Shown: piece by piece, positions 25,692-47,911 of the stretch
How positions within the stretch are numbered: position 1 is the stretch's first letter
How the letters are laid out: each line of letters starts with the position of its first letter
Source: Candidatus Nomurabacteria bacterium
GTDB lineage: Bacteria > Patescibacteriota > Patescibacteriia > UBA1558 > GWA2-36-10
Direction of reading: 5' to 3'
DNA: 64,000 nt
Assembly: GCA_020632415.1 (NCBI GenBank)
Contig: JACKFO010000002.1
Coordinates: forward strand, 450,732 to 514,731
Made by a program: the position numbers and the translations under genes
Notes under the pieces: generated by a model
Told to the model about the DNA's origin: nothing
Seen by the model: only the letters and a program-made list of their open reading frames with translations
Database searches by the model: none

Positions 25692-26339
25692 CTAATTATA
25701 TTGCACTCTAATATTCCCCCAAACATAGCCATCATCAGAAAGGTCTAAAATGTCTACCTGACTGGTCTGAAGATTGGCAGTATTTTTTAATATTATCTCT
25801 AAACTTTCATCAGCCGAATAACTAGTGGTAGCTGTATGTTCACTAGTAAAATTATAATAAAAAATATTTGTCCCTTCTCCTAAATCTTTTGGGTACACTG
25901 TAATATCATCATCGTAAAGATATTTTTTAATTTCTGCATCAGGAACAAAGTCCGGAGACGACTCACAATAGTTATTGCAATAAGCTGGACAGGTAGCAAT
26001 TAGCCCTTCGCAACCATAATCTTGATAACCAGCATGACCATTGTCAGCATAAATAGTATAAGAGCTCGGACTACTAGCATCATCAAAAAAAATACCATAA
26101 CCACCAATTGGAAAAGAATTGTTCTCATTGATTACTCGAGAGATTGTCAAATTCCTTAACTGCTTCAAATCAGCTGCGGTTTGTTCAGTTGCTTGATGTA
26201 ATTTTTCGGCATCGCTCAACCTGACTTGCACCACAAAAATACTAGTCATAATACCAATAATCGCAACAGCTACTAATAGCTCAATCAAAGTTGTGCCTAA
26301 ATGATTTCTTCTAAAGTCTACCATTTCCAAAAACTCCAA
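25692..26339 (-). CDS. Minor type IV pilin, FimT/FimU/GspH-like
   Basis: LGTTLIELLVAVAIIGIMTSIFVV prepilin-type N-terminus. First gene of the four-gene minor-pilin set. Confidence 0.5.
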   Translation of the reverse strand: MEFLEMVDFRRNHLGTTLIELLVAVAIIGIMTSIFVVQVRLSDAEKLHQATEQTAADLKQLRNLTISRVINENNSFPIGGYGIFFDDASSPSSYTIYADNGHAGYQDYGCEGLIATCPAYCNNYCESSPDFVPDAEIKKYLYDDDITVYPKDLGEGTNIFYYNFTSEHTATTSYSADESLEIILKNTANLQTSQVDILDLSDDGYVWGNIRVQYN

Positions 26340-27109
26340 TAAAAATTGATTAAAGTCTCTCCATAAAGCAAGACAATAAAAGTCGCTAAAGTCAAAAAAG
26401 TGCCAAAAGGCAATTTATCTCCCCAGTGTTTTTTCTTAAAAATTAACAAGCCAGAAGCAAACAGTCCGCCTAAAACATAAGCTAAAAATAAAGCAGTCAA
26501 CACCTGTGGCCAACCTAAAATCATGCCCATCAACAAACCAATGCGAACATCTCCTCCGCCAATCCATTTTCCATTTGACAAAACAAACTGTAACAAGAAA
26601 AATCCTCCACCAACTGCGGCAGCTAATAATAAATTTAACCAACTAAAACCAAAAAATAAATTTACCACAAAAGCAAAAGCAATGGCCGGTAAACTGACTT
26701 TATCTAAAATTAAATAATATTTTAAATCATAAACAAAAATTAACAACAAGAAAGCGAAGATAATCCACCAAAAAATTAAATGCGCAAAAATGCTTAGATT
26801 AGCCAGCTGAAAAATGGCAAGCTCATTGGTCTGAAAAATTTTCCAAAAGATCAAGACAAAGCCAATGGCTGTGGCTAGTTCTACCAAAAAATATTGCCAA
26901 GAAATTTTTGTCTTACAATAACGACATTTTCCTTTTAAAAAAACAAAACTAAACAACGGCACTAAATCTTGCGGAAAAAGACGATGTCCACAAAAAAGAC
27001 ATTTAGAAAATCCTTTAACAAAAGATTCAGCCCGATGAAGACGATAGATTACGACATTTAAAAAACTACCGACAAATAAGCCTAAAATAAAGACAAAAGC
27101 TACTAACAT
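26318..27109 (-). CDS. pilD: Prepilin leader peptidase / N-methyltransferase (A24 family)
   Basis: N-terminal tetracysteine motif (CLFCGH...CRYCKTKISWQY), eight TM segments, and GGGDVRIGLLMG containing the catalytic Asp. Confidence 0.85.
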   Translation of the reverse strand: MLVAFVFILGLFVGSFLNVVIYRLHRAESFVKGFSKCLFCGHRLFPQDLVPLFSFVFLKGKCRYCKTKISWQYFLVELATAIGFVLIFWKIFQTNELAIFQLANLSIFAHLIFWWIIFAFLLLIFVYDLKYYLILDKVSLPAIAFAFVVNLFFGFSWLNLLLAAAVGGGFFLLQFVLSNGKWIGGGDVRIGLLMGMILGWPQVLTALFLAYVLGGLFASGLLIFKKKHWGDKLPFGTFLTLATFIVLLYGETLINFYWSFWKW

Positions 27110-27157: not shown

Positions 27158-27586
27158 CTAAACGCAACCGTCGATATTACAACTTATAATTTCCGAACCA
27201 TTAGTAGCCATTAAGGTCCAAGTATTTGTCTGAGGATTACTGGGATCACATTCTAAATAGCTAAAACCATTTTGCGCAATATTCGGCCAAGTGGTTACGC
27301 TACCATTACAAATAGCATGCCCAGACCATGGTATGTAATTATCATTACAATAACAAATACCTCCAGGACAAGCTCCAGTAAATCTAGCTGTCAACTCTTG
27401 ATCATCGTCATAGCACAAAAGAATCGCCGAAGATAAAGATGCTAAACTGTATTTAACAGCTGCTGTTTTAGCATTGTTTCTAGCTGAACTTAAATTAACT
27501 ACCGCCACTGACGATAAAATACCAATAATCGCAATTACGACTAACAACTCAACTAAAGTAAAACCTAAATTATTTATTTTTTTCAT
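27158..27586 (-). CDS. Type IV major pilin paralog 1
   Basis: MKKINNLG|FTLVELLVVIAIIGILSSVAVVNL class III signal, then a Cys-containing C-terminal globular region. Confidence 0.8.
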   Translation of the reverse strand: MKKINNLGFTLVELLVVIAIIGILSSVAVVNLSSARNNAKTAAVKYSLASLSSAILLCYDDDQELTARFTGACPGGICYCNDNYIPWSGHAICNGSVTTWPNIAQNGFSYLECDPSNPQTNTWTLMATNGSEIISCNIDGCV

Positions 27587-27598
27587 CGTAAATAATTA

Positions 27599-28039
27599 TT
27601 AAGACTGACAGCTCAGGGCTAAATTACTAAGCATGCGACATTCTCCTCCTCGCCAAGAATCCAGGCCCCACAATCCCCACTTATTTTTTAAATTAAACTT
27701 CAAAGTATAATGATTACCAGAACTCAAAAAACTGACTGGTCTTTTGAAATTTTCAACTTTCTGATAATAAGTCACCTCTCCTTTTTGGTTTAAGCCATTT
27801 TCTGTTAAAAAAGAAATAGTTTCTAAGTTTATTTCTTTGCTCTCTGGATAAATTTGAAATTTATCATAATATTTTTCCAAAGCTGTTGCAAAAACTTTGA
27901 CTTGTTCTACCAACTCTAAATCTTTAACTCGACTACGATCAAAAACTAATAAAGTGATTGTCGAAAAAACTAACAATAACAATATTGCCAATAAAATAAC
28001 TTTTACTTTTTTACTATAATTAAATAAGCTCATATTCAT
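27599..28039 (-). CDS. Bitopic membrane protein of unknown function, encoded between pilin paralogs
   Basis: N-terminal hydrophobic helix (ILLAILLLLVFSTITLLVF). No prepilin motif. Confidence 0.35.
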   Translation of the reverse strand: MNMSLFNYSKKVKVILLAILLLLVFSTITLLVFDRSRVKDLELVEQVKVFATALEKYYDKFQIYPESKEINLETISFLTENGLNQKGEVTYYQKVENFKRPVSFLSSGNHYTLKFNLKNKWGLWGLDSWRGGECRMLSNLALSCQS

Positions 28040-28053
28040 ATTATAGCAAAATT

Positions 28054-28083
28054 AAAAAACACCAGCTAGTGCTGGCGTTTTTA
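28054..28083 (-). terminator. Rho-independent terminator downstream of pilin paralog 2
   Basis: On the minus strand: ACGCCAGC-ACTA-GCTGGTGT followed by TTTTTT. Confidence 0.6.
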
Positions 28084-28094
28084 GGATACTCAAC

Positions 28095-28535
28095 TTAAGA
28101 AGTTGTACAACCAATTTGATCACAAATAATATTATTTGTTCCGTCAGTAGCCGCGTACTCCCAAACACCAGATATGTAATCAGAATTGCAATCTCCGGTA
28201 AAAGCCCAACCGCTAACTATATTTTCCAAAATTGGCCACCTAACATCTACACCACTTGCCTCGCAGACTAATTGACCACTAACCGGCGCTCCGCTTAATC
28301 CATCGCAATAAGTCGGACCAGATTCTTCAACGAGAAGATTATAATCTTCGTTAAAACACAATGAAACCAATGGCCTAAAAGAAGCCATGGTCTGTTCAAT
28401 TGCTGCTATTTTAGCCTTATCACGCGCAGAGTTTAAATTAACTACGGCAACTGATGATAAAATACCAATAATCGCAATAACGACCAGCAACTCAACTAAA
28501 GTAAAACCATTTTTTGTTAAATTTTTAATCTTCAT
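28095..28535 (-). CDS. Type IV major pilin paralog 2
   Basis: MKIKNLTKNG|FTLVELLVVIAIIGILSSVAVVNLNSAR. The N-terminus is near-identical to paralogs 1 and 3 at both protein and DNA level. Confidence 0.8.
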   Translation of the reverse strand: MKIKNLTKNGFTLVELLVVIAIIGILSSVAVVNLNSARDKAKIAAIEQTMASFRPLVSLCFNEDYNLLVEESGPTYCDGLSGAPVSGQLVCEASGVDVRWPILENIVSGWAFTGDCNSDYISGVWEYAATDGTNNIICDQIGCTTS

Positions 28536-28590
28536 TCTAAAATTTTAATTCTTACAAAATTATTATAACACAAAACTCCAAATTAGTTAA

Positions 28591-29151
28591 CTATTTTTTG
28601 GCAAATACAAAATTGTTACAAGCAAATTGAAAATAACTCACCTTTGCTTTGCTTAAATCAAAATGCGCAATTTTTAACATTTCCTTCAATTCTTTGTTCC
28701 AAAAATATCTTTGATGATCTTCTATTTCTCGTCGGTCAACAATTTTTAATCTGTAAGACAAAAATTCTAAAATAGGTTTTGCTACCCACGATGGCGTAGT
28801 CAACAACAAAATTCCCCCTGGCTTAAGCACTCTATAAGCTTCATTTAATAACTCTTGTGGTTTTAAGACGTGCTCTAAAACCGCCAAACAAATCACCACA
28901 TCAACACTATTATCCTCTAAATTTACACGCTGATTTAAATTTGCTTGTTGCAAAATTATTTTTTCTGAAATCTTTCTATTAGATACTCGGCCATCGAAGC
29001 CAATTGCTCGCTGATAATAATTAGCTAAATCTTGCAAAACTCCCGCTTCTTCACCACAACCAAAATCAACTAATAGCTCTACTTTTTTTGGTAAATTTTT
29101 TGTGATTCTAGAAATCCTCAATTTCCTTAAAATTGGCTCTAAAATATACAT
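28591..29151 (-). CDS. Class I SAM-dependent methyltransferase
   Basis: Motif I LVDFGCGEEAG and post-I/II motifs (VVICLAVLEHV, VLKPGGILLL). Confidence 0.7.
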   Translation of the reverse strand: MYILEPILRKLRISRITKNLPKKVELLVDFGCGEEAGVLQDLANYYQRAIGFDGRVSNRKISEKIILQQANLNQRVNLEDNSVDVVICLAVLEHVLKPQELLNEAYRVLKPGGILLLTTPSWVAKPILEFLSYRLKIVDRREIEDHQRYFWNKELKEMLKIAHFDLSKAKVSYFQFACNNFVFAKK

Positions 29152-29849
29152 TATGAAAATAAATTAAAACGTATTATGTGCCAAAAAGCAGCTAGACCAT
29201 CTTTCCAATTAATTTTCTTACCATCTTTATATGTTCTGCCATAATAAGAAATCCCAACCTCATAAATAACAATCTCTTTTTTGGCTATTCTCGCTGTAAT
29301 TTCTGGCTCAAAACCAAATCGGGTAGATTTTAACTTGGGGATAATATCAGCAATAACTTCTTTTTTAAAAAGCTTATAGCAAGTCTCCATATCTGTCAGA
29401 TTAATGTTGGTCAACATATTAGAAAACAAGGTTAAAATCCGATTTCCTAAAGAATGCCAAAAAAATAAAACTCGATGTGGACCTTTACCTAAAAAACGCG
29501 AACCATAAACAACGTCGGCCCCGTGCCTTAAAACTGGTTCCAAAAGAACTTGATAATCATTTGGATCGTATTCTAAATCAGCATCTTGGATTAACAAAAA
29601 ATCTCCGCTAGCCAGCTCCAATCCTTTTCTAACTGCTGCGCCTTTACCTTGATTTTTTTCTTGAATAAAAATCCTATATTTATCTTTTAAATTTTCTAAA
29701 ATTTCTCGAGTACCGTCAGTTGAGGCGTCGTCAATAATTAAAATTTCTTTTTCAATATCATCCAAAAAAACTGCCTCTATTTTTTCTAATAATAGTGGCA
29801 AAGTCTTAGCCTCATTAAAAACTGGAATAACAATTGATAATTTTTTCAT
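29151..29849 (-). CDS. Family 2 glycosyltransferase (dolichyl/polyprenyl-phosphate hexosyltransferase-like). Start placed at MKKLS; the longer track ORF runs into the upstream terminator.
   Basis: LSIVIPVFNE, IIDDASTDGT and the DADLEYDP DxD motif. Confidence 0.75.
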   Translation of the reverse strand: MKKLSIVIPVFNEAKTLPLLLEKIEAVFLDDIEKEILIIDDASTDGTREILENLKDKYRIFIQEKNQGKGAAVRKGLELASGDFLLIQDADLEYDPNDYQVLLEPVLRHGADVVYGSRFLGKGPHRVLFFWHSLGNRILTLFSNMLTNINLTDMETCYKLFKKEVIADIIPKLKSTRFGFEPEITARIAKKEIVIYEVGISYYGRTYKDGKKINWKDGLAAFWHIIRFNLFS

Positions 29850-29883
29850 CTCATAAATCATAGCAAAAAAGCAAATTTTAGAC

Positions 29884-29913
29884 AACAAAAAATCTCCCCA
29901 AATTGAGGAGATT
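29884..29913 (-). terminator. Rho-independent terminator downstream of pilin paralog 3
   Basis: On the minus strand: AAATCTCC-TCAATTTG-GGGAGATTT followed by TTTTTTG. Confidence 0.6.
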
Positions 29914-29934
29914 TTGTTTACATTATTTCTAAAA

Positions 29935-30336
29935 TTATGGACAAGCATTACCAGAAGCAGCGGTGCTACCAGAGCCTGTACTAGAAATACAATAATCATT
30001 ACCAGATTCTCCAGCATTATCAAGAGCAGCACTAACTGCCCAAGCATCAGCATTTCCGGTACAAGTGATATCAGCATTAACTAAACCACTTGTCGCCTGT
30101 GCTGAAGAAGTAGCACTAGAAACTGCTGAATCAGCGCAGAAACCAGTATAGTTGTTATGATCATTATAATAAATTTCACCAGCAGCAGCTAGTCCTGCCA
30201 AAGAGCCCTTTACGGCAGCAACCTTGGCCTTTGAACGAGCAGAGTTTAAATTAACTACGGCAACTGATGATAAAATACCAATAATAGCGATTACGACTAA
30301 CAACTCGACTAAAGTAAAACCTTTTTGATTTTTCAT
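29935..30336 (-). CDS. Type IV major pilin paralog 3 with a Ser/Thr/Ala/Gly-rich C-terminal region
   Basis: MKNQKG|FTLVELLVVIAIIGILSSVAVVNLNSAR. Strong SD GGAGGTG 6 nt upstream. The C-terminal half is low-complexity S/T/A/G-rich with a Cys pair. Confidence 0.8.
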   Translation of the reverse strand: MKNQKGFTLVELLVVIAIIGILSSVAVVNLNSARSKAKVAAVKGSLAGLAAAGEIYYNDHNNYTGFCADSAVSSATSSAQATSGLVNADITCTGNADAWAVSAALDNAGESGNDYCISSTGSGSTAASGNACP

Positions 30337-30372
30337 TGTTACACCTCCCCTCTTGGGTCAAACAATTAAAGT

Positions 30373-30406
30373 TTAAAGCTTGAGATCTCAAAGCTCTAAA
30401 GCTTTA
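30373..30406. promoter_or_regulatory. Imperfect palindrome/operator-like element upstream of pilin paralog 3, in the divergent intergenic region
   Basis: AAAGCTTGAGATCTCAAAGCTCTAAAGCTT: an inverted repeat centred on GAGATCTC, with three AAAGCT hexamers. Confidence 0.2.
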
Positions 30407-30473
30407 TTTAATTGTCTGGGATCTTAATTATTAAAGACAGAATTATTATAGCACTTTTTCTAAAAATTGACTA

Positions 30474-32741
30474 TTGTTGAAAAGGAAAAAATGCATTAAA
30501 CTAAGTATATCATATTTTATGACTCACATAAACACACTTATGAAAAAAATAATTTATCAAATTTTATTAATTATTTTTATTATTTTTCTTTTGCTTATTT
30601 CTTTTAGAAAAATATTTAGTAACGATTTTTGGTGGCACTTAAAGCTCGGCCAACTAGCCTGGGAAAACAAAGAATGGATCACTAAAGAAATGTTTTCTTT
30701 CACTAGATATAATATTGATTGGTTTAATAACACTCAAATATTTGATGTCAGTATTTGGCTAATCTATAAGCATTTTTCTTATTTAGGGCTCTTTATCTTT
30801 AAATTTTTATGTTATTTAACAACGTTTTTTCTACTCTGGAAAACGATAAAGTTAAAAAATAATAACTCTGGACTCTTATTTTTTGCATTTTTTTCAATCC
30901 TCTCTTTATTATTATTTAGGTCTCTCTATCGCCCAGAAATATTCACTTATCTTTATACGGCTTTTTATCTCTACGCTTTATACAAATATAAATATACTGG
31001 GGGAAAATTATTATACTTAATCCCATTAATTCAAATCCTCTGGGTCAACACTCATTTGAGTTTTGTCACCGGTCTAGCTTTGGTCGGTGTTTTCTTTGGT
31101 GGAGAATTAATCCGACATTTATTGAAAAATAAAAATTTAAAATTTTTAAAAAATAAATACCTTAAAACTTACTTTGTTATTTTAATTTTAACAATAATTG
31201 CAAATTTTATTAGTCCTTATGGCCTAAAAACTATTTCTTGGTTTTGGTGGATTTTTTCTTCGCAAGAAAGCTTAAAAAATGTCAGTGAGTGGAATACTCC
31301 AGCTAAAGATAGGCTTTTTAATTTGGCAGACATCGCTAGTCTACCATACATTATAATCACTTGGCTTACTTTATTTGTTTTAATCAAAAAAATAAAAAAT
31401 TTGATCAACAAAAAATACAGCTCCTTTTCAGCTTACCAAAATATTCCCTGGGAAGACCTTTTTTTGTTTCTGCTATTTTTATACCAAAGTCTAGTTGCCC
31501 TGCGATTTGCTTTGATTAGCACTATAATTTTTTCTATTATTTTAATCAAAAATTGGCCAAAAAATCAAAAAAATCATTGGCTAACAAAAATGCTCCCTGT
31601 TACAGCTTTGATTATTTTTATGCTCAATCTCAGTTATTTTGATCGAGCTCAATTTGGTTTAGGATACTTAGATCATCGATACCCAGAAAATGCTGTTAAA
31701 TTTATCAAAGAAAACAAAATTCCTGGAAATATGGCTAATGATTATAATAATGGCGGTTATTATATTTGGTCACTCTACCCTGAAAAAAAAATCTTCATGG
31801 ACGGCCGTACGCCAAATGTTTATGATGATTATTTTTACTGGCAATGGAGAAATCTTGCAAACGATAATCTTAGAACTCAAATAGTCGAAGACTACCAAAT
31901 TAATTTCTGGCTTTGGCCAAATAATACCTCTCTACCAACAACTTTATGGAATGATGAAAATTGGCAATTGATTTATTTTGATGATTTATCGACGATTTAT
32001 ATCAAAAATACGGAAGATAACCAAGAAATTATTGAAAAATTTTCTTACAAAAACTTCGCGCCTTATTTCAATGAAAAAAACATCACCGATATTTGCCAGG
32101 AAGAAAATCTCAAAGAAAATCCAGATCTAAAAAATAACTTAATCAGTGAATTAGAAAAAGGATTAACGATCAATCCTCAAAATTGGTTGCAATACAAAAA
32201 TTTAGCCCTAGTTTATCAAAACTGTCAATTTAACCCAGAAGATCAAACAAAAATCGTCGAAAACCTTAGCCAAGCTTTAAAAATAAATCCAAAAAATCAA
32301 CATTTATACTATTTATTAGGATTCTATTATTTGCAAAATAATCAAGATCAATTGGCTTTTGAAAATTTTAAAAAAGCTGGGAAAACTCAAGCACCGTACT
32401 TAATAGGCTTAGGGACAGCTCAATACAATTTAGGGCAAAACCGACAAGCTCTTAAAACTTTATTAAAAGCACGAAAAACTGCTGGACAAATAGACACTAA
32501 ATACTACCAAACTTTAGCTCGCGTTTACTACACCCTGGATAAATACAAGATGGCAATCGAATTTCACAATCGCTATCTTGACTTAAGTCAAGATTATTCA
32601 GCCGAAAGCTACACTGATTTAGCTCAAAGTTATTTTTATGATAATCAGACCGAAAAAGCACAGGAGTATCTAGATAAAGCTTTGGAACTCGATCCTGATT
32701 ATCCTTTGGCCTTAGAAATGCAAAAAGAATTAAACAAATAG
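30474..32741 (+). CDS. Polytopic membrane protein (about 12 TM) with a C-terminal TPR-repeat domain. Candidate GT-C-fold glycosyltransferase or O-oligosaccharyltransferase. The start is uncertain (possible Met at 30519 or 30540).
   Basis: N-terminal about 400 aa is highly hydrophobic with many predicted helices. The C-terminal about 250 aa has TPR-like repeats (LALVYQNCQ..., YYLLGFYYLQNNQDQLAFENFKKAG, YTDLAQSYFYDNQTEKAQEYLDKALELDPDY). It is encoded divergently from a pilin gene. Confidence 0.4.
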   Translation: MLKRKKCIKLSISYFMTHINTLMKKIIYQILLIIFIIFLLLISFRKIFSNDFWWHLKLGQLAWENKEWITKEMFSFTRYNIDWFNNTQIFDVSIWLIYKHFSYLGLFIFKFLCYLTTFFLLWKTIKLKNNNSGLLFFAFFSILSLLLFRSLYRPEIFTYLYTAFYLYALYKYKYTGGKLLYLIPLIQILWVNTHLSFVTGLALVGVFFGGELIRHLLKNKNLKFLKNKYLKTYFVILILTIIANFISPYGLKTISWFWWIFSSQESLKNVSEWNTPAKDRLFNLADIASLPYIIITWLTLFVLIKKIKNLINKKYSSFSAYQNIPWEDLFLFLLFLYQSLVALRFALISTIIFSIILIKNWPKNQKNHWLTKMLPVTALIIFMLNLSYFDRAQFGLGYLDHRYPENAVKFIKENKIPGNMANDYNNGGYYIWSLYPEKKIFMDGRTPNVYDDYFYWQWRNLANDNLRTQIVEDYQINFWLWPNNTSLPTTLWNDENWQLIYFDDLSTIYIKNTEDNQEIIEKFSYKNFAPYFNEKNITDICQEENLKENPDLKNNLISELEKGLTINPQNWLQYKNLALVYQNCQFNPEDQTKIVENLSQALKINPKNQHLYYLLGFYYLQNNQDQLAFENFKKAGKTQAPYLIGLGTAQYNLGQNRQALKTLLKARKTAGQIDTKYYQTLARVYYTLDKYKMAIEFHNRYLDLSQDYSAESYTDLAQSYFYDNQTEKAQEYLDKALELDPDYPLALEMQKELNK

Positions 32742-32745
32742 AACA

Positions 32746-32776
32746 AAAACCCCGTCAAAAGACGGGATTTTTATTT
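32746..32776. terminator. Bidirectional terminator between the convergent TPR-membrane gene and pilC
   Basis: AAAACCCCGTC-AAAA-GACGGGATTTTTATTT. Confidence 0.6.
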
Positions 32777-32791
32777 GGATAAATATTTATT

Positions 32792-34006
32792 TTAACTAAT
32801 ACTTTGAGCAACTTTAAACATCGGTAACATAATAGCTGCCACCATCCCACCAACGCCGACGCCCATGACCATCAAAATCATCGGCTCTATCAAGGCTGTT
32901 AAACCATTAACCAAACTATCAATTTCCCGAGTATAAAAATCAGAAAGTTTTTCTAAAATTGAGTCCAACTTACCGGTCTGCTCACCAATACTCATCATTT
33001 GAGACAACATTTTTGGCATTAAATCAGATTTAGAAAAAACAGTGACAACAGAATTTCCATCTTCTACTTCCTTGATTGTCCCTAAGATTAAAGCACGATA
33101 AGCTTCGTTATCCACCACTTCAGCAGTAATTCTCAAGGCAGCTGAAACTGGCACGCCACCTCTGATCAAAGTCGAAAAACCACGAGCAAAACGAACGATA
33201 TAAATTTTCTGAAACAATGGCCCAAAAATAGGAACTTTTACTTTGGCAGTATCCCAAGCAATCTTACCACCGCCAGTTTTAGTCCAAGCTTTGAAAGCAA
33301 CAAACAAACCTACTGCCGTCCCGACAATTAACCACCAAAAGCTTTGCATAAAACTAGAAACGCCAATTAAAATTCTAGTTAAAAAAGGTAATTCTGCTCC
33401 CGAATCAATTAACATCTGAGTCATGTTTGGCACCACAAAAATCATCATCAAAAATCCCACCAAAATCATACCAGAAATAATAAAAACTGGATAAATCATC
33501 GCACCTTTAATTCGAGAGACCAAATCATAATCTTTTTCCATCTGATCGGCTAAATATTGCAAAACCTCATCCAATTTACCAGATGTTTCACCAGATTTAA
33601 CCATCGCCACATAAAAACGACTAAAGACTTTTGGATGTTTACCAAGAGCTGATGATAATTTCATACCACCATCAACGTCATTGGCCATCTCCATGATGTC
33701 TTCAATAAAAATAGGATTGACAGTCTGCTGAGCTAAAATTTTTAAAGCCTGAACAATCGGGACAGTAGAAGAAACCATTACTGACAATTGACGAGAAAAA
33801 ATAACAATATCTTTATTTTTAACTCGACCAATATTGATATTAAAACCTTTTTTGGCCTTTGATCCTCCTTCTTGCAAAGACAAAACAATCAGACCCTTGT
33901 CTTCTAACAATTCAATTGCCGATGATTCTGAAACAGCCTCGACATTTCCAGTTGTCACCGAGCCAGATTGTCCTCTGGCTCGATATTTAAAAGTAGGCAT
34001 AGCCAA
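32792..34006 (-). CDS. pilC: Type IV pilus assembly platform protein PilC (GspF family)
   Basis: Two T2SS-F domains and three TM segments. Typical about 400 aa length. Confidence 0.85.
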   Translation of the reverse strand: MAMPTFKYRARGQSGSVTTGNVEAVSESSAIELLEDKGLIVLSLQEGGSKAKKGFNINIGRVKNKDIVIFSRQLSVMVSSTVPIVQALKILAQQTVNPIFIEDIMEMANDVDGGMKLSSALGKHPKVFSRFYVAMVKSGETSGKLDEVLQYLADQMEKDYDLVSRIKGAMIYPVFIISGMILVGFLMMIFVVPNMTQMLIDSGAELPFLTRILIGVSSFMQSFWWLIVGTAVGLFVAFKAWTKTGGGKIAWDTAKVKVPIFGPLFQKIYIVRFARGFSTLIRGGVPVSAALRITAEVVDNEAYRALILGTIKEVEDGNSVVTVFSKSDLMPKMLSQMMSIGEQTGKLDSILEKLSDFYTREIDSLVNGLTALIEPMILMVMGVGVGGMVAAIMLPMFKVAQSIS

Positions 34007-35118: not shown

Positions 35119-35493
35119 TTACTTACTTAAGATGCCTTTGATTTTAGCGACAACTTCACTCGGCACAAAATGAGCTTTGATTAAATAATCTTCCGCTCCA
35201 AGATCCAAACATTTATCAATATGTTCTTTTTGAGAAAAGTTAGTCAAAATCAAAACTGGAATATTTTTGGTTTTCTCATCGGCTTTTAGATTTCTCAAAA
35301 CCTCAAAACCGTCCATTTCTGGCAAATTTAAATCCAATAAAATAAAATCTGGTAACTCTTTTTGAGCTAACTTCAAACCAGCTGTGCCGGTCATGGCTGT
35401 CAAAACATTAAAATCTTCCAATTCTAATTTGGCAGCATACATTTGAGACAAAAAGTCATCATCCTCCACAATAAGTACTCTTACTTGATCCAT
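35119..35493 (-). CDS. Single-domain CheY/PilH-like response regulator embedded in the pilus ATPase operon
   Basis: VLIVEDDD, LLDLNLPEMDG (phospho-acceptor Asp), ILT (Thr) and KAHF (Lys) receiver signatures. 124 aa. Confidence 0.75.
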   Translation of the reverse strand: MDQVRVLIVEDDDFLSQMYAAKLELEDFNVLTAMTGTAGLKLAQKELPDFILLDLNLPEMDGFEVLRNLKADEKTKNIPVLILTNFSQKEHIDKCLDLGAEDYLIKAHFVPSEVVAKIKGILSK

Positions 35494-35497
35494 AATT

Positions 35498-37240
35498 TTA
35501 TCCTTTACTTACACGTAAAATTTCTTCTACCGTTGTTAAACCTAAGGCAGCTTTGATTACGCCATCTTGATCCATTGTGATAAAGTTTTGTTTGGCCAGC
35601 TCTGCCTCCACTGCTTGACGATCAAAACCCTTGGCGACAATGTCTTTCATTTCTTTGGTGATGTCAATGGCCTCAACAATCGCCAAACGACCCTTGTAGC
35701 CAGTTCCACCACACTGAGCGCAACCTTCGCCACGATAAAAAGTATATTTTCCTTTTTTGGAACCACCATAAAAAGAAGATTCTGGAATTGTTTCCATAGT
35801 TTGTTTAATCTCAGCTAAAACATTATCTGGTAATTTTTCTTCCTTTTTACATTTTTCACAAATTTTTCTTACTAAACGTTGAGCAATTACCACATTTAAA
35901 GTACTGGCCAACAAAAATGGCTCAATATGCATATCAAACATACGAGGAATAGCACCAAGAGCATCGTTGGTATGCAAAGTAGATAAAACAAAGTGACCAG
36001 TAAGACCAGCATGAATGGAAAGTTCCGCTGTTTCATTATCACGAATCTCTCCGACCATGATGATATCTGGGTCTTGTCGAAGTAATGCTCTTAAACCACT
36101 AGCAAAAGTAAATCCTACTTCTGGCCTAACTTGAGACTGGTTAACTCCCGGAACATAATACTCAACCGGATCTTCCAAAGTTGCAATATTAACCCCTTCT
36201 TGATTCAAAGAGCTTAAGGCCGCAAATAAAGTCGTTGATTTACCAGAACCAGTCGGGCCAGTTACCAAAAACATGCCATTTGGTTTTTGAATATTCTTCA
36301 TTGCCCTTTTGCCACTTTCACCCATAAAACCAAGCTCTTCAAAAGTTGGCGCTTTTTCTGGAGTTTCCAAAATACGCATTACCACCTTTTCGTTGCCCAT
36401 CAAAGGAATAGTGGAAATACGGAAATCGACGTCTTTGTTGTGAATTTTGATTCGAATACGACCATCCTGTGGAATACGAGTTTCATCAATTTTCAAATTA
36501 GACATAACCTTAATACGCGAAACCAAAGCTGAATGAACATAAATTGGTAAAACTATCGTTGTGTGCAAAACACCGTCAATACGATAACGAATTTTACTTT
36601 GGTTACCAACTGGCTCAATATGAATATCCGAGGCCCTTCCTTCAATCGCATGCCTTAAAACCACTGAAACAATCTTAGAAACTGGAGCAGATTTAATAAC
36701 TTCCGTAAAACCTTTTCCATCATCATCATCAATAGTTTCATCTTTGGGCGCAAAAATTGCCTCAGCAGTATCTAGAGCTGCTCCCACCTCTTCACCTAAA
36801 GTCTCGTATTGTTTTAAAGCTGCACGATAACTATCTTCAGAAATAATATAAAATTTTATATTGTACTGATTTTTTCTAGCCAAAAAATTTAAAGCTTCCA
36901 TGGCTTTTAAATTTCCTGGATCGACTAAACCAGCTTCGATTTTCTTACCATCTTTATTAAAAACGACCATGCGGTAATTTTCAGCTAAATCTTGTGGTAA
37001 GATATTTAAAATTTCTGAATTAATAACTTTACCAGAAAGATTGATATATTCCATATCAAAAAAAACCGCCTTGGCTTGCGTCCAATCTTCATCAGAAACT
37101 AAAATTTTGCGCCTCAAATCTTTTTCTAATTCAGAAAAAGAACTGGCTTTGTTATTTAATAATTCTTGATATTGTTGGTCATTAATGAGTCTTTTTTCTT
37201 GTAAAAAACTCAATAATTTAAGTATTTCTTTTTTTGTCAT
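35498..37240 (-). CDS. pilB: Type IV pilus extension ATPase PilB (GspE family)
   Basis: N-terminal GSPII_E domain and canonical Walker A VTGPTGSGKSTT. Asp box DPDIIMVGEIRD, His box STLHTND, tetracysteine motif CEKC...CAQC. Confidence 0.9.
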   Translation of the reverse strand: MTKKEILKLLSFLQEKRLINDQQYQELLNNKASSFSELEKDLRRKILVSDEDWTQAKAVFFDMEYINLSGKVINSEILNILPQDLAENYRMVVFNKDGKKIEAGLVDPGNLKAMEALNFLARKNQYNIKFYIISEDSYRAALKQYETLGEEVGAALDTAEAIFAPKDETIDDDDGKGFTEVIKSAPVSKIVSVVLRHAIEGRASDIHIEPVGNQSKIRYRIDGVLHTTIVLPIYVHSALVSRIKVMSNLKIDETRIPQDGRIRIKIHNKDVDFRISTIPLMGNEKVVMRILETPEKAPTFEELGFMGESGKRAMKNIQKPNGMFLVTGPTGSGKSTTLFAALSSLNQEGVNIATLEDPVEYYVPGVNQSQVRPEVGFTFASGLRALLRQDPDIIMVGEIRDNETAELSIHAGLTGHFVLSTLHTNDALGAIPRMFDMHIEPFLLASTLNVVIAQRLVRKICEKCKKEEKLPDNVLAEIKQTMETIPESSFYGGSKKGKYTFYRGEGCAQCGGTGYKGRLAIVEAIDITKEMKDIVAKGFDRQAVEAELAKQNFITMDQDGVIKAALGLTTVEEILRVSKG

Positions 37241-39276: not shown

Positions 39277-40479
39277 TTAAATATCACGCATTGCTAGACC
39301 AATAGAAGCGGCCATTCTTGGCCCAATTTCTTGGAGCACTGGCTTTAAATCCAAAGGATAAACTATCCTGTCCCAAGGATCACCGATGATCACGGGTAAA
39401 CCTAATAACTCTGATAAATATTTTGGTAAATTTGGTAAAAAAGAACTGCCACCAGCTAGAATAATTTTTTCAATCTGTGACTCACCTTGTCTTTGATAAA
39501 GATCAAAAACGTACTTAATTTCATTAATAATTGGGTTTAAAGAATTTTGGATTGTATTTGGCACCGAACGATTTCCTACTGTTGTTAAGCCAAAATCTCT
39601 TTTGAATTGCTCTGCTCGATCGACATTAACATTCATGCTATTCATGATCGATTTAGTGATCAGATTTCCGCCAGTATCAATGCCCCTGTTTAAAATCGGC
39701 ACGCCCTCTTCAATGACACAAACATCGGTATTATTTGCGCCGATATCAACAATCATTACGCTAGACATGTCATTGCCCATCAAAGAACGAGAAAGGGCAA
39801 AGGCTTCGGTTTCCAAACTTAATAAATTTAAATTTGTACGTTTAAAAATATCTAGATATCTAGCCACTAAATTTTTTGGAGCAGCTGTTAACAAAATTCG
39901 ATAATTTTTTGCCCCTAAAACTCCACGATTAACCACTTCCTCTACTGGACCATTTTTTTCTGCTTCTTTTTTTGCTGTCTCTTCAGCCTCTGAATCTTCC
40001 TCTGAAGAATCTTCATCTTTTGTTTTTTTACTAAAAATGCTTCCTAATTTTCCAGTTAAATCAGCGCTTGCCTTTGGATCGTTAGCGACTTCTTTTTTAT
40101 TCAAAATTTTCCAGTCCAAAATCATTTCTTCAATTGGCAAAGGAATAAATTTTTTGGCTTCCCACTTGATCGCTGAAGACAGGTCTTTTTTTGGCATGGG
40201 TGGCAAAGAAATGATCGAAGTAAAAACAGAAAAAGTTGGCAAGGCAGCAATAGCTTGTCGTGATTCAATTCTAGCTTTTTTAACAATATGCTTAATATAA
40301 TCAGCAATTAACTGATTATTTTTCTCTGTTGCAGCGGATAAAATATTAGTATTAATATCAGCGTAGCCATAGGTCTTTAGCTTTGCTTGGCCTTTATAAC
40401 TTTCTAGCTCAACAATTTTAACACTGGTTGTCCCAATATCTACACCCAAATAGCTATTTACCGTAGAAAATAATTGCAT
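39277..40479 (-). CDS. pilM: Type IV pilus assembly ATPase-fold protein PilM (actin-like), with an acidic low-complexity insertion
   Basis: LGVDIGTTSVKIVEL phosphate-1 motif, actin-like fold motifs, and an inserted DEDSSEEDSEAEETAKKEAEK segment. Confidence 0.8.
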   Translation of the reverse strand: MQLFSTVNSYLGVDIGTTSVKIVELESYKGQAKLKTYGYADINTNILSAATEKNNQLIADYIKHIVKKARIESRQAIAALPTFSVFTSIISLPPMPKKDLSSAIKWEAKKFIPLPIEEMILDWKILNKKEVANDPKASADLTGKLGSIFSKKTKDEDSSEEDSEAEETAKKEAEKNGPVEEVVNRGVLGAKNYRILLTAAPKNLVARYLDIFKRTNLNLLSLETEAFALSRSLMGNDMSSVMIVDIGANNTDVCVIEEGVPILNRGIDTGGNLITKSIMNSMNVNVDRAEQFKRDFGLTTVGNRSVPNTIQNSLNPIINEIKYVFDLYQRQGESQIEKIILAGGSSFLPNLPKYLSELLGLPVIIGDPWDRIVYPLDLKPVLQEIGPRMAASIGLAMRDI

Positions 40480-40599: not shown

Positions 40600-42567
40600 T
40601 TAGTAAGGAGTATAATCAAATTGCGGTAAGGAATCCGCAAAATTCTGCAAACCAGCTGGTGGATTGACCTGCAAACGACCGTCGTTGATAAATTTTTCTG
40701 CTGGTTCATTGTCTGTGTTATAAGTTCTTTCTAAAACAAATTTTTTAGCAATTACTGTGCCGTTGATTTTTAACTGACTATCAATTGGCGAATCATAAGA
40801 AGAAATAAAACGACCACAATTCCATTCATCAACCGCGCAGTCTGTTCCGTCAGCTCCTAAAACAATAAATGTTCCGGAAATTTCACTTACATTACGATCA
40901 ACCCACAAATCTCCCTTGATAACCCAGACTACCGAGCCGATGTCTTTTAGTCTATCAATACTTGAAACGTCTGAAGAATAAACAATATTATTAGCAATCA
41001 ACACCGGGCCACCCCCAAAAACAACCACCCCAGAACCATTTTCTTTATTAACCGCATTATCAATTATTAAACTACTAGGAAAACCATTGAAAATCCTTGG
41101 CATGGGACTATAATAAACTGTATTATTTAATTCTATTTTACCACCATTATCAATCAAAGTACTCCAACCAGAAGACCCTGGTGGCAAAAGATCAAGTGTG
41201 GAACCATACTTATTTTTGCCAGTTGAACCAACTTCTGTAATCAAACCATCATAATCAATTTTACCCAAAGCATTGACGTATTTTCCAGCTCCATTGGAAC
41301 TTGGAAAATTAATCAAAGGACGATTTTGCAAATAACTCAAGCCATCTTTAGAGCTAGAAGCATTAAGCTGGAAAATATCACCACCTGCTTCAATAATGTA
41401 AGCATTGTAAATATCTGGTGCTAAAATATAATTTGATCTGATTTTGCCCTTAGAATAAATATCTCCTGCGTCTACTTGAAAATAAGGATTATTGCCAGCA
41501 GTAATCCTTGGCGAAAACTGAATCCACCCTACGCCATTACCAGAACCAGAGTCTTGATTCCAGGCCCAACCGCACATATAGCCAGCGCCGTCATTAGTTG
41601 CTGTCGCATAATCTACCAACAAACCTGGAATGTCATAATAATTTACGCAACTTGAACAAGTGTTTTGGTTATTTTGATAAGCATTTTCTGTACAACGAGT
41701 ATCCACGCCATCAGGACCATTAAATAAACAATCTGAACATTGATAGCCAGCAACAGAGCTAGCTAAACTACCGTCAACATTGTAAGTATATTCTAAACAA
41801 TTATCACAAGTGCGATTAACATCGCAAGTGCTGCCAGGAGACAAAGCATCACATTCTGCATCAGCAGTACAAGAAATCCCTGAATCATGGCTACAAGTTT
41901 TAGTTTCTTGACAATTAAAACAACTTTCTAAAGAGCCTGAAGGAGCTCCAATGGCGTCAATCGGAAAACCTAATTCATTTGTCCAATCTGTTTCTCCTTC
42001 CAAAATCACAATACTAGCATGACCGTTGCTATCTTGACTACCCCAAGTTCCTCCTCCATGATATAGAGCATTAGGAACTAAACTTGCTGCCGGACTCAAA
42101 CCGCTTGGCGAGTCATTTGGCCAATAATAATCATTTAAATAAACTCCATAATCAGGCGCTAAAGTACTGCCAGCTAAGCCAGGGTCATCAAAACAAATCC
42201 ACCAACCAACGCTATCAGCCCAAGCACAACCACCGACAGCGCGGACGCTTTCATCGGCTGATGCGTCTAAATATAAACCAAAATCTACTGCACCTAAGCC
42301 AGGATGCCCATCACGAACACTAGCGCAATAATTATCAGCCGCTGTTAACTCACCATCTCCATCAAAATCATTATAACAATTTAAGGTCAACCAACCGATG
42401 TTTGGCGACCAAGCCCAACCATGAAACTGAAAATCTTCTTGATTCAATCCTCCGCCTCCGGTATTTGCTTTGATTGTTTTTTGATAAATAAAGAAAACAA
42501 AAGAGATTGCCAAAATAGCAAATAAAAATATTCTGAGATAAAAATGAAAATGAAAATGCTTTTTCAT
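40600..42567 (-). CDS. Large secreted/membrane-anchored Cys-, Trp-, Asp- and Gly-rich protein with repeated GWAW...GW motifs (unknown function)
   Basis: N-terminal hydrophobic signal/anchor, Gly run, two GWAW(S/N)...GW(L/I) motifs, a roughly 100-aa region with over 20 Cys, and a C-terminal beta-rich segment. Confidence 0.45.
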   Translation of the reverse strand: MKKHFHFHFYLRIFLFAILAISFVFFIYQKTIKANTGGGGLNQEDFQFHGWAWSPNIGWLTLNCYNDFDGDGELTAADNYCASVRDGHPGLGAVDFGLYLDASADESVRAVGGCAWADSVGWWICFDDPGLAGSTLAPDYGVYLNDYYWPNDSPSGLSPAASLVPNALYHGGGTWGSQDSNGHASIVILEGETDWTNELGFPIDAIGAPSGSLESCFNCQETKTCSHDSGISCTADAECDALSPGSTCDVNRTCDNCLEYTYNVDGSLASSVAGYQCSDCLFNGPDGVDTRCTENAYQNNQNTCSSCVNYYDIPGLLVDYATATNDGAGYMCGWAWNQDSGSGNGVGWIQFSPRITAGNNPYFQVDAGDIYSKGKIRSNYILAPDIYNAYIIEAGGDIFQLNASSSKDGLSYLQNRPLINFPSSNGAGKYVNALGKIDYDGLITEVGSTGKNKYGSTLDLLPPGSSGWSTLIDNGGKIELNNTVYYSPMPRIFNGFPSSLIIDNAVNKENGSGVVVFGGGPVLIANNIVYSSDVSSIDRLKDIGSVVWVIKGDLWVDRNVSEISGTFIVLGADGTDCAVDEWNCGRFISSYDSPIDSQLKINGTVIAKKFVLERTYNTDNEPAEKFINDGRLQVNPPAGLQNFADSLPQFDYTPY

Positions 42568-42658: not shown

Positions 42659-44635
42659 TTATTTTGGAGTATACGTAATATTGGTGCAATAACCACTGTC
42701 TGTGACACTATTCATCAAAGACTGCCATCCAGTTCCATTACAGACACACAAAGCGTTATATAGAGAGAAATAATACACCATTCCTGTATTAGAAATACTA
42801 CAAGTAGGCCCCGCTGTACCGCCACCATCAAAATCTAATACTTTTGGACTACCCAAAACAACGTGACCAGAACTATTGATAGTTAAACGAGCTGCGCTAT
42901 TAGTAACCAAAGCAATATTATCATTGGCTGGAAAGTACATACCAGTATTTTCATCTGCTCGGTGAGCAAGTGAAGTATTGGCTAAAGTTCCGTCAGCTAA
43001 TTTTACAGTATTCGTAAATCTTGCTATGCCATTAACTACAAACAAATCTGTCGGCGCAGTTGTACCAACACCAACGCGATTATTAGCAGCGTCAACATAA
43101 AAATTATTAACTGTTAAATTACCGTCTTTGTCTAATTTTAATTTATCAGCTCCAGCTGTCTGTAATTTAAGTAAACTAGCACCGCTGACAGCAGAAGCAG
43201 CATTGGCATAAATCAAATTTTCTCCAGCTGCCGCTAAAGAATCATTGATCTGTACTGAACCGCCTTTAAGATAAACATCGCCAGCAAAAAAACCAGCATA
43301 GTTATTTTTGCCACCTGCATCCTGACAATAAAGATAATAATCTCCGCCCGCAAGATCTGCTTCTCTGGCTTTTTCACCAGACAAAGCACAAAGTCCTAAA
43401 CCAGCACGACCAAAACCACCACTATAAGTCCAGCCGCCAGCAGCAACTATTCCTAAAGGACCAGGGGTTTCTACCCCAGCTAAAGTTTTGTCTAGGCCAA
43501 ACAACTTACTAATCACAGTCCCGTCTGGAGGTATTTCGCCGCCAGCACCTTCTCCGCCAGGAGGAGGACTCCAACCAGTAGCGGTAGCACCTTTAAAAAT
43601 ACCCGCATAGCCAGGAGAATCAGCAAAAACACCCACTAAACTACCATTAGCGTATACTCCGGTTGTGCCAATGCCTTCAACGCCAGCATTGGTATCATAA
43701 TTTTCACCATCAGCAATTCCAACAATCGCGCTATAAAGGCTGACTGGCGAAGCATCAACTCTTAAAATTCCTTCAACGCTAGCACCATTGTCTATGGTGA
43801 CAAAACCTTCCATATAAGTAGTTCCAGTAACAATCAAATTACCAGTAAGTTCTTGATTAGCAGCATTTATATTCTGAGAAACGTTTAAATTTCCACCCGA
43901 GACGTTTAAATTTCCACCGGCAACAGTAAAGCTACTTCCAGTCACATCAGCTTCTACTCCACCCAAAACTCCCAAAGCTAAACCACCGCCAGAATTATCA
44001 AAATATCCCCCATAGCCATTAACATAAGCCGAAGACCCTCTAACACCAACAGCATTATCTGAAGCAGCGTATCCTAAAACACCAGTACCACCTTTATTGT
44101 TCGCTAAACCATAAACTCCGTAACTAGGATTAGTTTCTGAAGCAGCGTTAGTCTGTCCCCACAAACCAAAGGTATAAGCTTTATTAATGCTATTCTTTGC
44201 AGCAGTAGCCTCTACCCCTCCACACTGATCACCATCTTTAGTTGGTGCACAACTTTGTAACTCTATGACGCCATATTTACCATCTCCAGACAAATCAGCG
44301 GTCAAAGGGTTATCTAAACCTCCTCCGCCGGTCAAAAATTCTGCCACCGTATGTCCATCAATGGTATTTACATCCAAATTTCCAGAAAAGCTACCATTGG
44401 CTCCGCTAATCGTATTAACATTGATTACCGAGGCTGTAGAGCTAGAGTTACTTAAATTCCATCCATTTAAATCTAAGCTAGCACTAAGAGGATTTGTAAT
44501 TGGCGGATTAACACCGCTTGACCCCGGACCAGTGCCTGGGCCAATCCATTGGGCAAATACTTGTCTTTGTACAAAGGCAAAACCTAAAACTAAAATTAGC
44601 ACAGCCAATAGATAAAGTTGTTTCTTATTAAACAT
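42659..44635 (-). CDS. Secreted Gly/Asn/Ser-rich fibre/adhesin-like protein, paralog A (658 aa)
   Basis: Signal peptide, ...AQW, and an NP..x..DLNGWNLSN motif. Gly-rich repeats follow. A conserved block AGLGLCALSGEKA...YCQDAGGKNNYAGFFAGDVYLKGGS is shared with paralog B. The C-terminal module is CSISNTGMVYYFSLYNALCVCNGTGWQSL. Confidence 0.55.
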   Translation of the reverse strand: MFNKKQLYLLAVLILVLGFAFVQRQVFAQWIGPGTGPGSSGVNPPITNPLSASLDLNGWNLSNSSSTASVINVNTISGANGSFSGNLDVNTIDGHTVAEFLTGGGGLDNPLTADLSGDGKYGVIELQSCAPTKDGDQCGGVEATAAKNSINKAYTFGLWGQTNAASETNPSYGVYGLANNKGGTGVLGYAASDNAVGVRGSSAYVNGYGGYFDNSGGGLALGVLGGVEADVTGSSFTVAGGNLNVSGGNLNVSQNINAANQELTGNLIVTGTTYMEGFVTIDNGASVEGILRVDASPVSLYSAIVGIADGENYDTNAGVEGIGTTGVYANGSLVGVFADSPGYAGIFKGATATGWSPPPGGEGAGGEIPPDGTVISKLFGLDKTLAGVETPGPLGIVAAGGWTYSGGFGRAGLGLCALSGEKAREADLAGGDYYLYCQDAGGKNNYAGFFAGDVYLKGGSVQINDSLAAAGENLIYANAASAVSGASLLKLQTAGADKLKLDKDGNLTVNNFYVDAANNRVGVGTTAPTDLFVVNGIARFTNTVKLADGTLANTSLAHRADENTGMYFPANDNIALVTNSAARLTINSSGHVVLGSPKVLDFDGGGTAGPTCSISNTGMVYYFSLYNALCVCNGTGWQSLMNSVTDSGYCTNITYTPK

Positions 44636-44742
44636 ATTTTTTATTTTTCAATAATCTCTTTTTATTATACTAAAATTTAGCAAAAATAACAAATCCAGAC
44701 AAAATAAATTACCTGGATTGTTAAAAAAATTTAAAATTTTAT

Positions 44743-46266: not shown

Positions 46267-46310
46267 AATTTTATTTTTATTAACTATATTATAACACAAA
46301 ACTCTCTGAA

Positions 46311-46346
46311 TAAAAAACACCGCAACTTAAATCAGTTGCGGTGTTT
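46311..46346 (-). terminator. Rho-independent terminator downstream of fibre paralog C
   Basis: Perfect 12-bp stem AACACCGCAACT-TAAATC-AGTTGCGGTGTT with a flanking A-run. Confidence 0.65.
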
Positions 46347-46362
46347 TAAAATTTAAATTATT

Positions 46363-47772: not shown

Positions 47773-47911
47773 AATATTTTTTATCGCTAATTTAAAAACA
47801 TTAATATTATAACATAAAATAAGAAAAACTAAAATCGTGTTGCTTTTAATTAAGAAATTCACTATAATTAAAGCAGAAAAAATATAGTAAATAGCATTTA
47901 AAAATAAAAAT

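Follow-up and report, generated by a model that had tools for sequence, protein, structure and literature searches.

In a 64-kb stretch of the genome of an uncultured, ultra-small bacterium, Candidatus Nomurabacteria (contig JACKFO010000002.1; the whole stretch is hereafter called the window), the minus strand carries a complete set of type IV pilus genes, whose pilD-pilC segment is a variable island, where pilin genes stand together with genes for glycosylation-type enzymes. It encodes three type IVa prepilins, a family 2 glycosyltransferase (GT2), an S-adenosylmethionine (SAM)-dependent methyltransferase and, on the opposite strand, a membrane protein of predicted GT-C fold carrying C-terminal tetratricopeptide repeats (TPR). 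The reading favoured here, with moderate confidence, is that of a two-enzyme lipid-linked-sugar pathway glycosylating the pilins. It is built on the gene content of the island, the GT-C fold prediction, the GT2 subtype, a natural fusion protein and conserved synteny, as established computationally. The components of the island and the two genes flanking it are as follows (aa, amino acids; TM, transmembrane).

26318-27109, minus strand: prepilin peptidase PilD, flanking the island (A24_N_bact, E 1e-31, and Peptidase_A24)
27158-27586, minus strand: pilin 1, type IVa prepilin, 142 aa, eight Cys in the mature protein (N_methyl, PF07963, E 7e-8)
28095-28535, minus strand: pilin 2, 146 aa (N_methyl, E 5e-8)
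28591-29151, minus strand: class I SAM-dependent methyltransferase, 186 aa (Methyltransf_11, E 1e-16)
29151-29852, minus strand: GT2 glycosyltransferase, 233 aa, no TM helix (PF00535, Glycos_transf_2, E 5e-35)
29935-30336, minus strand: pilin 3, 133 aa, four Cys, Gly/Ala/Ser/Thr fraction 0.50 (N_methyl, E 2e-11)
30540-31640, plus strand: membrane domain of predicted GT-C fold, residues 1-366, about 11 TM helices
31648-32054, plus strand: predicted extracytoplasmic alpha/beta domain, residues 370-505, from the secondary structure of the model, with conserved G405, P414, D421, R423, W475 and D481
32073-32741, plus strand: C-terminal TPR domain, residues 512-733 (Pfam matches TPR_2, TPR_8 and TPR_12; TPR fold matches)
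32792-34006, minus strand: platform protein PilC, flanking the island, 83-84% identical to same-position T2SSF-domain proteins in the related loci L001 and L011

A membrane protein of predicted GT-C fold

The gene for the membrane/TPR protein lies where the original prediction had placed it, in an open reading frame (ORF) at 30474-32741 on the plus strand, divergent from pilin 3. Its probable start is the ATG at 30540, which leaves 203 bp between the two start codons and yields a protein of 733 aa, as annotated by NCBI (P0001); this form is 100% identical to an NCBI protein of Candidatus Nomurabacteria bacterium labelled 'tetratricopeptide repeat protein' only. A strong, bidirectional terminator-like hairpin of 15 pairs (32742-32775) separates the convergent 3' ends of this gene and of pilC.

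Regarding the membrane domain, a GT-C fold is very probable on the strength of AlphaFold2 models, with a pLDDT of 90.1 for the full protein and a pLDDT of 92.7 and pTM of 0.92 for residues 1-505. When the membrane part was compared to the PDB with Foldseek, the top 18 matches were all GT-C enzymes (E 1.5e-6 to 0.13; TM-score to query 0.40-0.60), including STT3 (6ftg_5, E 1.5e-6; 8pn9), DPY19 (7zlg, TM-score to query 0.60), PglB, AftA, ArnT, ALG9, AftB and EmbB. Next in rank stood a weak match to the C-terminal domain of AglB (3vu0, E 0.16), followed by receptors and transporters, all with a probability <0.15. The protein thus models confidently as a GT-C glycosyltransferase and not as a transporter or protease, either of which would have spoken against the glycosylation function first proposed for it. 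With the full-length model, the fold search returned mostly TPR matches, and a profile search of PDB sequences retrieved TPR proteins only. Likewise, TPR repeats alone were recognized by Pfam and NCBIfam, the membrane domain giving no match in 10 family members at E<=10. The architecture initially described, namely some 12 TM helices followed by C-terminal TPR, is thus retained for the TPR but amended to about 11 helices in the model.

Among 35 homologues sharing 20-49% identity, five residues are invariant (D29, R131, N170, P226 and E250) and three are near-invariant (W168, H172 and R322). Asp29 directly follows the first TM helix. From the charge distribution, with short loops rich in Lys/Arg, the N-terminus is placed inside the cell, whereas Asp29, E250 and the C-terminal domains would face outside; as the number of TM helices is odd and the N-terminus is inside, the C-terminus comes to lie outside the cell and the TPR domain is predicted to be extracytoplasmic.

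As for the resemblance to PMT/ArnT-like enzymes initially noted, no PMT, PMT_2 or related match was found in Pfam at E<=10 and ArnT (5f15) is matched at the level of the fold only (E 2.6e-4, 9% identity). Two closer identities were discarded. The suggestion of a PglL/TfpO-like O-oligosaccharyltransferase does not hold, with no Wzy_C match at E<=10 in the 10 members searched and no WaaL/ligase-type structure among the fold matches. Membership of the oligosaccharyltransferases (OST; GT66) was rejected as WWDxG is absent, the only WW pairs being WWH at 31 and WWI at 236. Since WWDxG, DDX and the Emb/TfpW proline motif are all missing, the protein is not assignable by motif to the OST or to TfpW, the pilin glycosyltransferase considered at the end of this text.

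The GT2 glycosyltransferase and its coupled methyltransferase

The GT2 announced between the pilin genes carries both of the motifs ascribed to it, the DxD in the form DADLEYD together with DDASTDGT. Its start is most likely the ATG at 29852; the longer ORF call (29151-30077) overlaps pilin 3 solely through an upstream extension. The best NCBIfam matches are AglJ (E 4e-31, residues 5-228), PgfS, ArnC, a haloarchaeal Dol-P-hexose transferase and PpgS, while the best PDB matches are the Pyrococcus DPMS (5mlz, E 5e-18), ArnC and GtrB. Judged from these similarities, the enzyme likely belongs to the polyprenyl-phosphate sugar synthase subgroup (Dpm1/AglJ-like), whose members typically work together with GT-C enzymes (PMC11127046). 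The SAM methyltransferase expected in the same interval is present as well, and its start codon overlaps the GT2 stop codon (TAATG), indicating translational coupling.

Besides, the two types of glycosyltransferase occur as a single polypeptide. P0250, a protein of 881 aa from a 5.8-kb Logan contig, is a natural fusion of a Dpm1-like GT2, a GT-C-like membrane domain and a C-terminal TPR domain. Its GT2 domain is 35% identical to the GT2 of the window (E 4e-44), and its membrane and TPR part matches the window protein at E 1e-24 by BLASTP and 4.9e-87 by profile, Asp29 being kept. Because P0250 fuses both types, it serves as a Rosetta stone for the joint action of the separate enzymes, and a partnership of GT2 and GT-C in the window is accordingly regarded as probable.

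Three complete pilin genes

The three pilin genes were recovered at the positions first given for them, each with an N_methyl match. As in type IVa pilins, all three have a short leader with Gly as its last residue, followed by Phe at +1, Glu at +5 and a hydrophobic alpha1-N helix, with PilD encoded in the same locus; the motifs at the cleavage site read KGFTLVE, LGFTLVE and NGFTLVE. Their C-terminal halves had been described as completely different, which holds for pilin 3, unrelated to the two others past about residue 65, but not for pilins 1 and 2, which are 42% identical over their full length and have a common Cys pattern. Similarly, the Ser/Thr/Ala/Gly-rich composition reported for pilin 3 is real, but it characterizes the entire globular part rather than a tail. 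In PDB sequence searches, pilin 3 matches major pilins, namely Geobacter PilA, Thermus PilA4, Myxococcus PilA and Neisseria PilE, as well as S. sanguinis PilE1. The pilins that adjoin the GT-C gene in related genomes share 47-49% identity with pilin 2.

In a promoter and terminator scan, pilin 2 was found to have its own promoter-like site (28590-28562) and terminator-like hairpin (28082-28055). Pilin 3 has the best promoter-like site of the pilins (30473-30445, TAGTCA-17-TG-TATAAT), a GGGGAGG ribosome-binding site and its own terminator hairpin (29915-29889); these are the strongest expression signals of the three. With complete genes throughout and such sites at pilins 2 and 3, all three pilins look expressible, and the original suggestion of multiple co-expressed major pilins is plausible.

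Relatives of the island and of the GT-C family

Close relatives of the GT-C/TPR protein (43-49% identical to that of the window) were found in L001/L002/L003, counted as one, and in L010, L011 and L019; two of the useful loci came from a metagenome scan. When genome contigs were scanned with the single GT-C/TPR protein nothing was retrieved, and with a 3-sequence alignment only distant members were. All four close relatives have the GT-C/TPR gene between pilC and pilD, oriented divergently from a pilin gene. A GT2 is also encoded in the longer loci (L001, L011 and L019), and L001 and L011 have in addition a second pilin, a homologue of the small protein ORF146 described below and one or two methyltransferases. 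The GT2 at this position in the relatives is of a different subtype, full-length ArnC/PgfS-like (E 5e-64), and the island of L001 further includes an AsnB-like amidotransferase. Besides these, a locus from Candidatus Levybacteria (GCA_016204435.1; L020, 179-6985) is a second, independent pilin-plus-glycan arrangement: there, the TPR-bearing P0230 (33% identity) abuts an N_methyl pilin gene in a block also containing genes for a PglD-like acetyltransferase, a DegT aminotransferase, a GT4 and an LPG_synthase_TM protein. Altogether, a pilin adjoins the GT-C/TPR gene in six loci, i.e. the window, L001, L010, L011, L019 and L020.

Between genomes, PilB, PilT, PilC and PilM are 79-85% identical, whereas the pilins are 39-49% and the GT-C proteins 44-49% identical, both varying in concert with the type of GT2, from which it follows that the island is the fast-evolving part of the locus. 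Across the window, L001 and L011, its content varies in GT2 subtype, in the number of methyltransferases and of pilins and in the presence of the AsnB-like gene, its components being either 29-49% identical or replaced. Variation of the pilins between the strains L001 and L002 was also considered and rejected, as these pilins are identical and only the called start differs.

The GT-C family as a whole is very large, with 22,021 of 1.84 billion representatives matching at E<=1e-30, and the names encountered among the sampled members are 'hypothetical', 'TPR repeat protein' or, driven by the TPR, 'TadD'. Distant members, mostly without recognized TPR, adjoin genes for GT2, PMT_2, GT4 or WecA-like proteins; one is next to a PilB-like ATPase and others stand in unrelated contexts. 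In Doudnabacteria (L023:7001-10992) and Parcubacteria (L024:7001-10034), TPR-less members lie directly upstream of a PMT_2 gene, which in L023 is followed by a GT2 of 226 aa; this arrangement suggests tandem GT-C pairs.

A putative pilin glycosylation pathway

In the pathway proposed, the three prepilins would be processed by the adjacent PilD. On the cytoplasmic face of the membrane, the GT2 would load a sugar from a nucleotide sugar onto polyprenyl phosphate, as expected from its family, and the coupled methyltransferase might, speculatively, methylate that sugar. A flippase would then move the lipid-linked sugar outward. Outside the membrane, the 733-aa GT-C protein would transfer the sugar to the pilins, with Asp29 acting as a catalytic or metal-binding residue and the outward-facing TPR domain possibly holding the protein substrate. 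In this scheme, we infer the lipid donor, the pilin acceptor, the target of methylation and the type of linkage. To take the pilins as acceptors is the most parsimonious choice, since their genes repeatedly adjoin the GT-C/TPR gene and TfpW offers a precedent.

The dedicated glycosylation pathway of the original prediction thus gains from the GT-C fold, the GT2 subtype, the P0250 fusion and the adjacency to pilins in five other loci, while its acceptor is still drawn from gene context. Besides this reliance on context for the pilin as acceptor, several points weigh against the pathway. The GT-C assignment derives from a predicted structure, with no sequence model of a known GT-C family matching. 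The GT2 scores far under the curated cut-offs of every named equivalog, reaching 108 bits at best, where AglJ requires 325. No GtrA-, SMR- or MATE-like flippase was detected in the 64-kb window by a crude hydropathy screen, which covered ORFs from 80 aa upward with three or more hydrophobic segments. Most sampled members of the family are not beside pilus genes and, closer by, secreted Gly/Ala/Ser/Thr-rich proteins encoded at 42659-47967 are possible other acceptors.

Alternative explanations

The last points bear upon the alternative that keeps the most weight, although it is unlikely on the whole: the GT2/GT-C pair would glycosylate something else in the envelope, be it a cell-wall polymer, a lipoglycan or other surface proteins, and its position in the pilus locus would stem from co-regulation, or from hitch-hiking within a surface island of variable content. 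A family of some 22,000 representative clusters (E<=1e-30), whose distant members were mostly sampled in general-glycan or unrelated contexts without pilins, would accord with such a broader role, as would the presence of three large secreted paralogues only 10 kb away and the fact that polysaccharides are the classical substrate of three-component GT-C systems (PMC11127046). However, it is the TPR-bearing members that adjoin a pilin in six loci, one of them from a different lineage of the Candidate Phyla Radiation (CPR) at 33% identity; in the window, the GT-C gene is lodged with pilC on one side and the pilin block on the other, and has its divergent promoter region in common with pilin 3. 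In addition, the TPR domain suits a protein substrate, as in TfpW and the eukaryotic TMTC proteins.

Another explanation concerns the pilin genes themselves, whose conserved 5' block had been proposed as a substrate of recombination or gene conversion creating pilin variation among three cassettes; this appears improbable. The near-identity of the first 30 codons or so, including at the DNA level, was nonetheless found as described. The first 25 residues from Gly onward (GFTLVELLVVIAIIGILSSVAVVNL) are identical in pilins 1, 2 and 3, and the 75 nt encoding them show six differences in each pair of pilins. The conserved DNA block at the pilin 5' ends extends over about 90 nt, and pilins 2 and 3 have in common an exact run of 47 nt (28426-28472 and 30239-30285), seen in 0/100 shuffles. 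The block also emerged as a repeat family (D1) of 71-77% identity over 153 nt, with three copies.

27435-27587: D1 copy at the 5' end of pilin 1
28378-28530: D1 copy at the 5' end of pilin 2
30191-30343: D1 copy at the 5' end of pilin 3

The 28-residue N-terminus is the same in 8/8 pilins of four genomes (one with an S-to-A change), and for this reason constraint at the protein level explains most of the 5' conservation. Among identical residues of the first 28 codons, identical codons are used in 62/82 cases (0.76) between the paralogues of the window, compared to 235/412 (0.57) in the pilin block between species, the latter being at the level of core genes between species (0.50-0.59). Between window paralogues the proportion falls to 11/32 (0.34) in codons 29-55. 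The difference between the window and the between-species values gives a Fisher p=0.002, the pairs not being independent, and the same within-genome identity is lower elsewhere, with 17/27 in L001 and 17/28 in L011, where the excess is accordingly small. The within-genome codon excess is therefore real yet modest, and would fit either a duplication of more recent date or occasional homogenization.

The organization of the genes argues further against cassette exchange. A second homology block was searched for among the pilin genes, including at their 3' end, and none was found, leaving the single 5' block. The three genes are all full-length, each with a start codon and a leader peptide, and promoter-like and terminator-like sites of their own accompany two of them. 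They stand in direct orientation and, being direct repeats, a crossover between them would delete the intervening GT2 and methyltransferase genes rather than shuffle the variable parts. What stands of the gene-conversion claim is thus the modest excess of codon identity together with the 47-nt run, against which are set the protein constraint, the single block of homology and the complete genes in direct orientation.

Finally, that the membrane/TPR protein would be a non-enzymatic factor of pilus assembly or stability (PilW/PilF/TadD-like) with a polytopic anchor is very improbable. Its TPR region does match the NCBIfam PilW (E 6e-13, under the cut-off), and JGI gives one member of the family the name 'Flp pilus assembly protein TadD', but the PilW/TadD matches span generic TPR repeats only. 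The membrane domain matches GT-C only and keeps invariant charged residues; many members have it with no TPR attached, and P0250 has it joined to a GT2.

Genomic setting of the island

On the minus strand of the window, whose GC content is about 35%, the order of the pilus genes is PilM, PilB, a receiver-only regulator, PilT, PilC, the pilin and glycosylation region, PilD, three minor pilins with a PilX-like protein, and LigA. Besides the genes listed above, the following features were delineated.

27599-28039, minus strand: ORF146, 146 aa, a single N-terminal TM helix, conserved and always within the pilin block
35119-35493, minus strand: receiver-only response regulator, 124 aa, between pilB and pilT
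35498-37240, minus strand: PilB
39277-40479, minus strand: PilM (PilM_2, E 1e-45)

ORF146 has no match in Pfam, NCBIfam or the PDB, and its homologues (48-56% identity) are found beside pilD in the pilin block of L001 and L011. After its TM helix comes a pilin-like stretch, ALEKYYDKFQIYP, yet without a prepilin cleavage motif, and a TATAAT abuts its ATG. Regarding the receiver-only regulator, the protein at the same position is 79-84% identical in L001 and L011, and L019 also has a receiver gene there.

Directly upstream of pilM are four further genes on the minus strand. Three encode paralogous secreted proteins (42659-47967; 525-658 aa), rich in Gly/Ala/Ser/Thr/Asn and sharing a C-terminal module, and the adjoining fourth encodes a Cys-rich protein of 655 aa (40600-42567). 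No significant Pfam match was obtained for any of them, apart from one sub-threshold YadA_head, and the GC content climbs to 0.40 in the secreted-protein stretch. In L001 and L019, a protein of 643-645 aa without Pfam match occupies the same position upstream of pilM and can be likened to the 655-aa protein by size and position only. The proteins encoded upstream of pilM could be adhesins or alternative targets of glycosylation.

Significance

Nearly all CPR/Patescibacteria have type IV pili, which mediate host binding in cultivated Saccharibacteria. Pilin glycosylation in these bacteria has so far been predicted only, by a site-prediction program (PMC11623550). With a candidate GT2 lipid-sugar synthase and a GT-C/TPR transferase encoded beside the pilins, the locus offers a concrete and testable enzymatic route to it. 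Neither pilin-adjacent GT-C/TPR glycosyltransferases nor lipid-sugar pathways combining GT2 and GT-C enzymes are new in kind, both being already known. What is new is a GT-C protein in a CPR pilus locus that fails the motif tests for TfpW and OST and comes from a large family for which neither a sequence model nor a characterized member was found; the locus thereby gives a first functional handle on a family of about 22,000 clusters (E<=1e-30) of membrane proteins.

The contrast between a conserved motor and variable pilins and GT-C proteins, along with the swapped GT2 types, points to a diversification of the surface, which bears on host range and phage pressure. A broader view can be put forward tentatively, namely that, within a very large GT-C family devoid of a Pfam model and, in the databases sampled, of informative names, and with no NCBIfam model matching the membrane part of the window protein, the TPR branch might be a dedicated CPR pilin glycosyltransferase, with the island as a fast-evolving specificity cassette tuning the pilus surface for host attachment or phage evasion in episymbionts.

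Comparison with known systems

The closest counterpart is TfpW from Pseudomonas aeruginosa group IV strains (Pa5196, PA7), a GT-C of 646 aa that combines 11 TM helices with a periplasmic TPR. It is encoded beside pilA, pilin arabinosylation depends on it, and its donor is a monosaccharide linked to polyprenyl phosphate (10.1101/2020.04.19.049825; PMC11841053). Like TfpW, the window protein is predicted to be a polytopic GT-C with about 11 TM helices, a first outward loop that contains a conserved Asp, and an outward C-terminal TPR, and its gene lies directly beside a major pilin gene. TfpW is characterized by a DDX motif in periplasmic loop 1 and an Emb-like YX6PFX7P in loop 4 (10.1101/2020.04.19.049825), whereas the window protein has S-N-D29 at the former position (family consensus DxD) and no match to YX6PFX7P, even in relaxed form. 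Moreover, the GT-C gene of the window is divergent from the pilin gene instead of downstream of it, the putative donor synthase is a GT2 inside the island instead of an unlinked D-Araf pathway, and the host is a CPR bacterium. None of the family matches in the homologue searches was named TfpW. The best reading is that the window system would be functionally analogous to TfpW while belonging to a different, unannotated GT-C family, the two being set apart by motifs and not by sequence comparison.

In the three-component systems (GtrA/GtrB/Gtr*, ArnC/ArnEF/ArnT, PgfS/PgfM, Ppm1/Pmt), a GT2 polyprenyl-phosphate sugar synthase likewise works with a GT-C (PMC11127046). The pairing of GT2 and GT-C in the window is of this type, and its GT2 matches ArnC, GtrB, PgfS and DPMS; it differs in that no flippase gene was found in the window, the GT-C falls in no Pfam-modelled family and the proposed acceptor is a pilin instead of a polysaccharide or lipid A. 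With STT3/PglB/AglB and DPY19, which are protein-glycosylating enzymes, the membrane domain has its best structural matches (E 1.5e-6 to 4e-5; TM-score to query 0.52-0.60), but identity in the structural alignments is 10-13%, the WWDxG motif is lacking, and the GT2 partner is of the monosaccharide type rather than a machinery of oligosaccharide assembly.

The eukaryotic O-mannosyltransferases TMTC1-4 consist of a GT-C membrane domain followed by a C-terminal TPR on the non-cytoplasmic side, and a bacterial PMT_2 protein with TPR was found here in L009. The window protein has the same architecture, N-terminal GT-C and C-terminal TPR, but differs by the absence of any PMT, PMT_2 or DUF1736 Pfam match at E<=10.

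As for the set of pilin genes, the pilE/pilS system of Neisseria achieves antigenic variation from promoterless, 5'-truncated silent cassettes, homology being present on either side of the variable region. Both systems have several pilin-coding copies made up of conserved and variable parts, whereas the copies in the window are complete with their 5' end, none is a truncated promoterless cassette and homology is not present on both sides of the variable part. S. sanguinis PilE1/PilE2 and Thermus PilA4/PilA5 are heteropolymeric or multiple major pilins, and the window resembles them in having several complete major-pilin paralogues with near-identical N-termini in a single locus. By analogy with these species, pilins that would be used together or alternatively are a more natural reading of the three genes than recombination.

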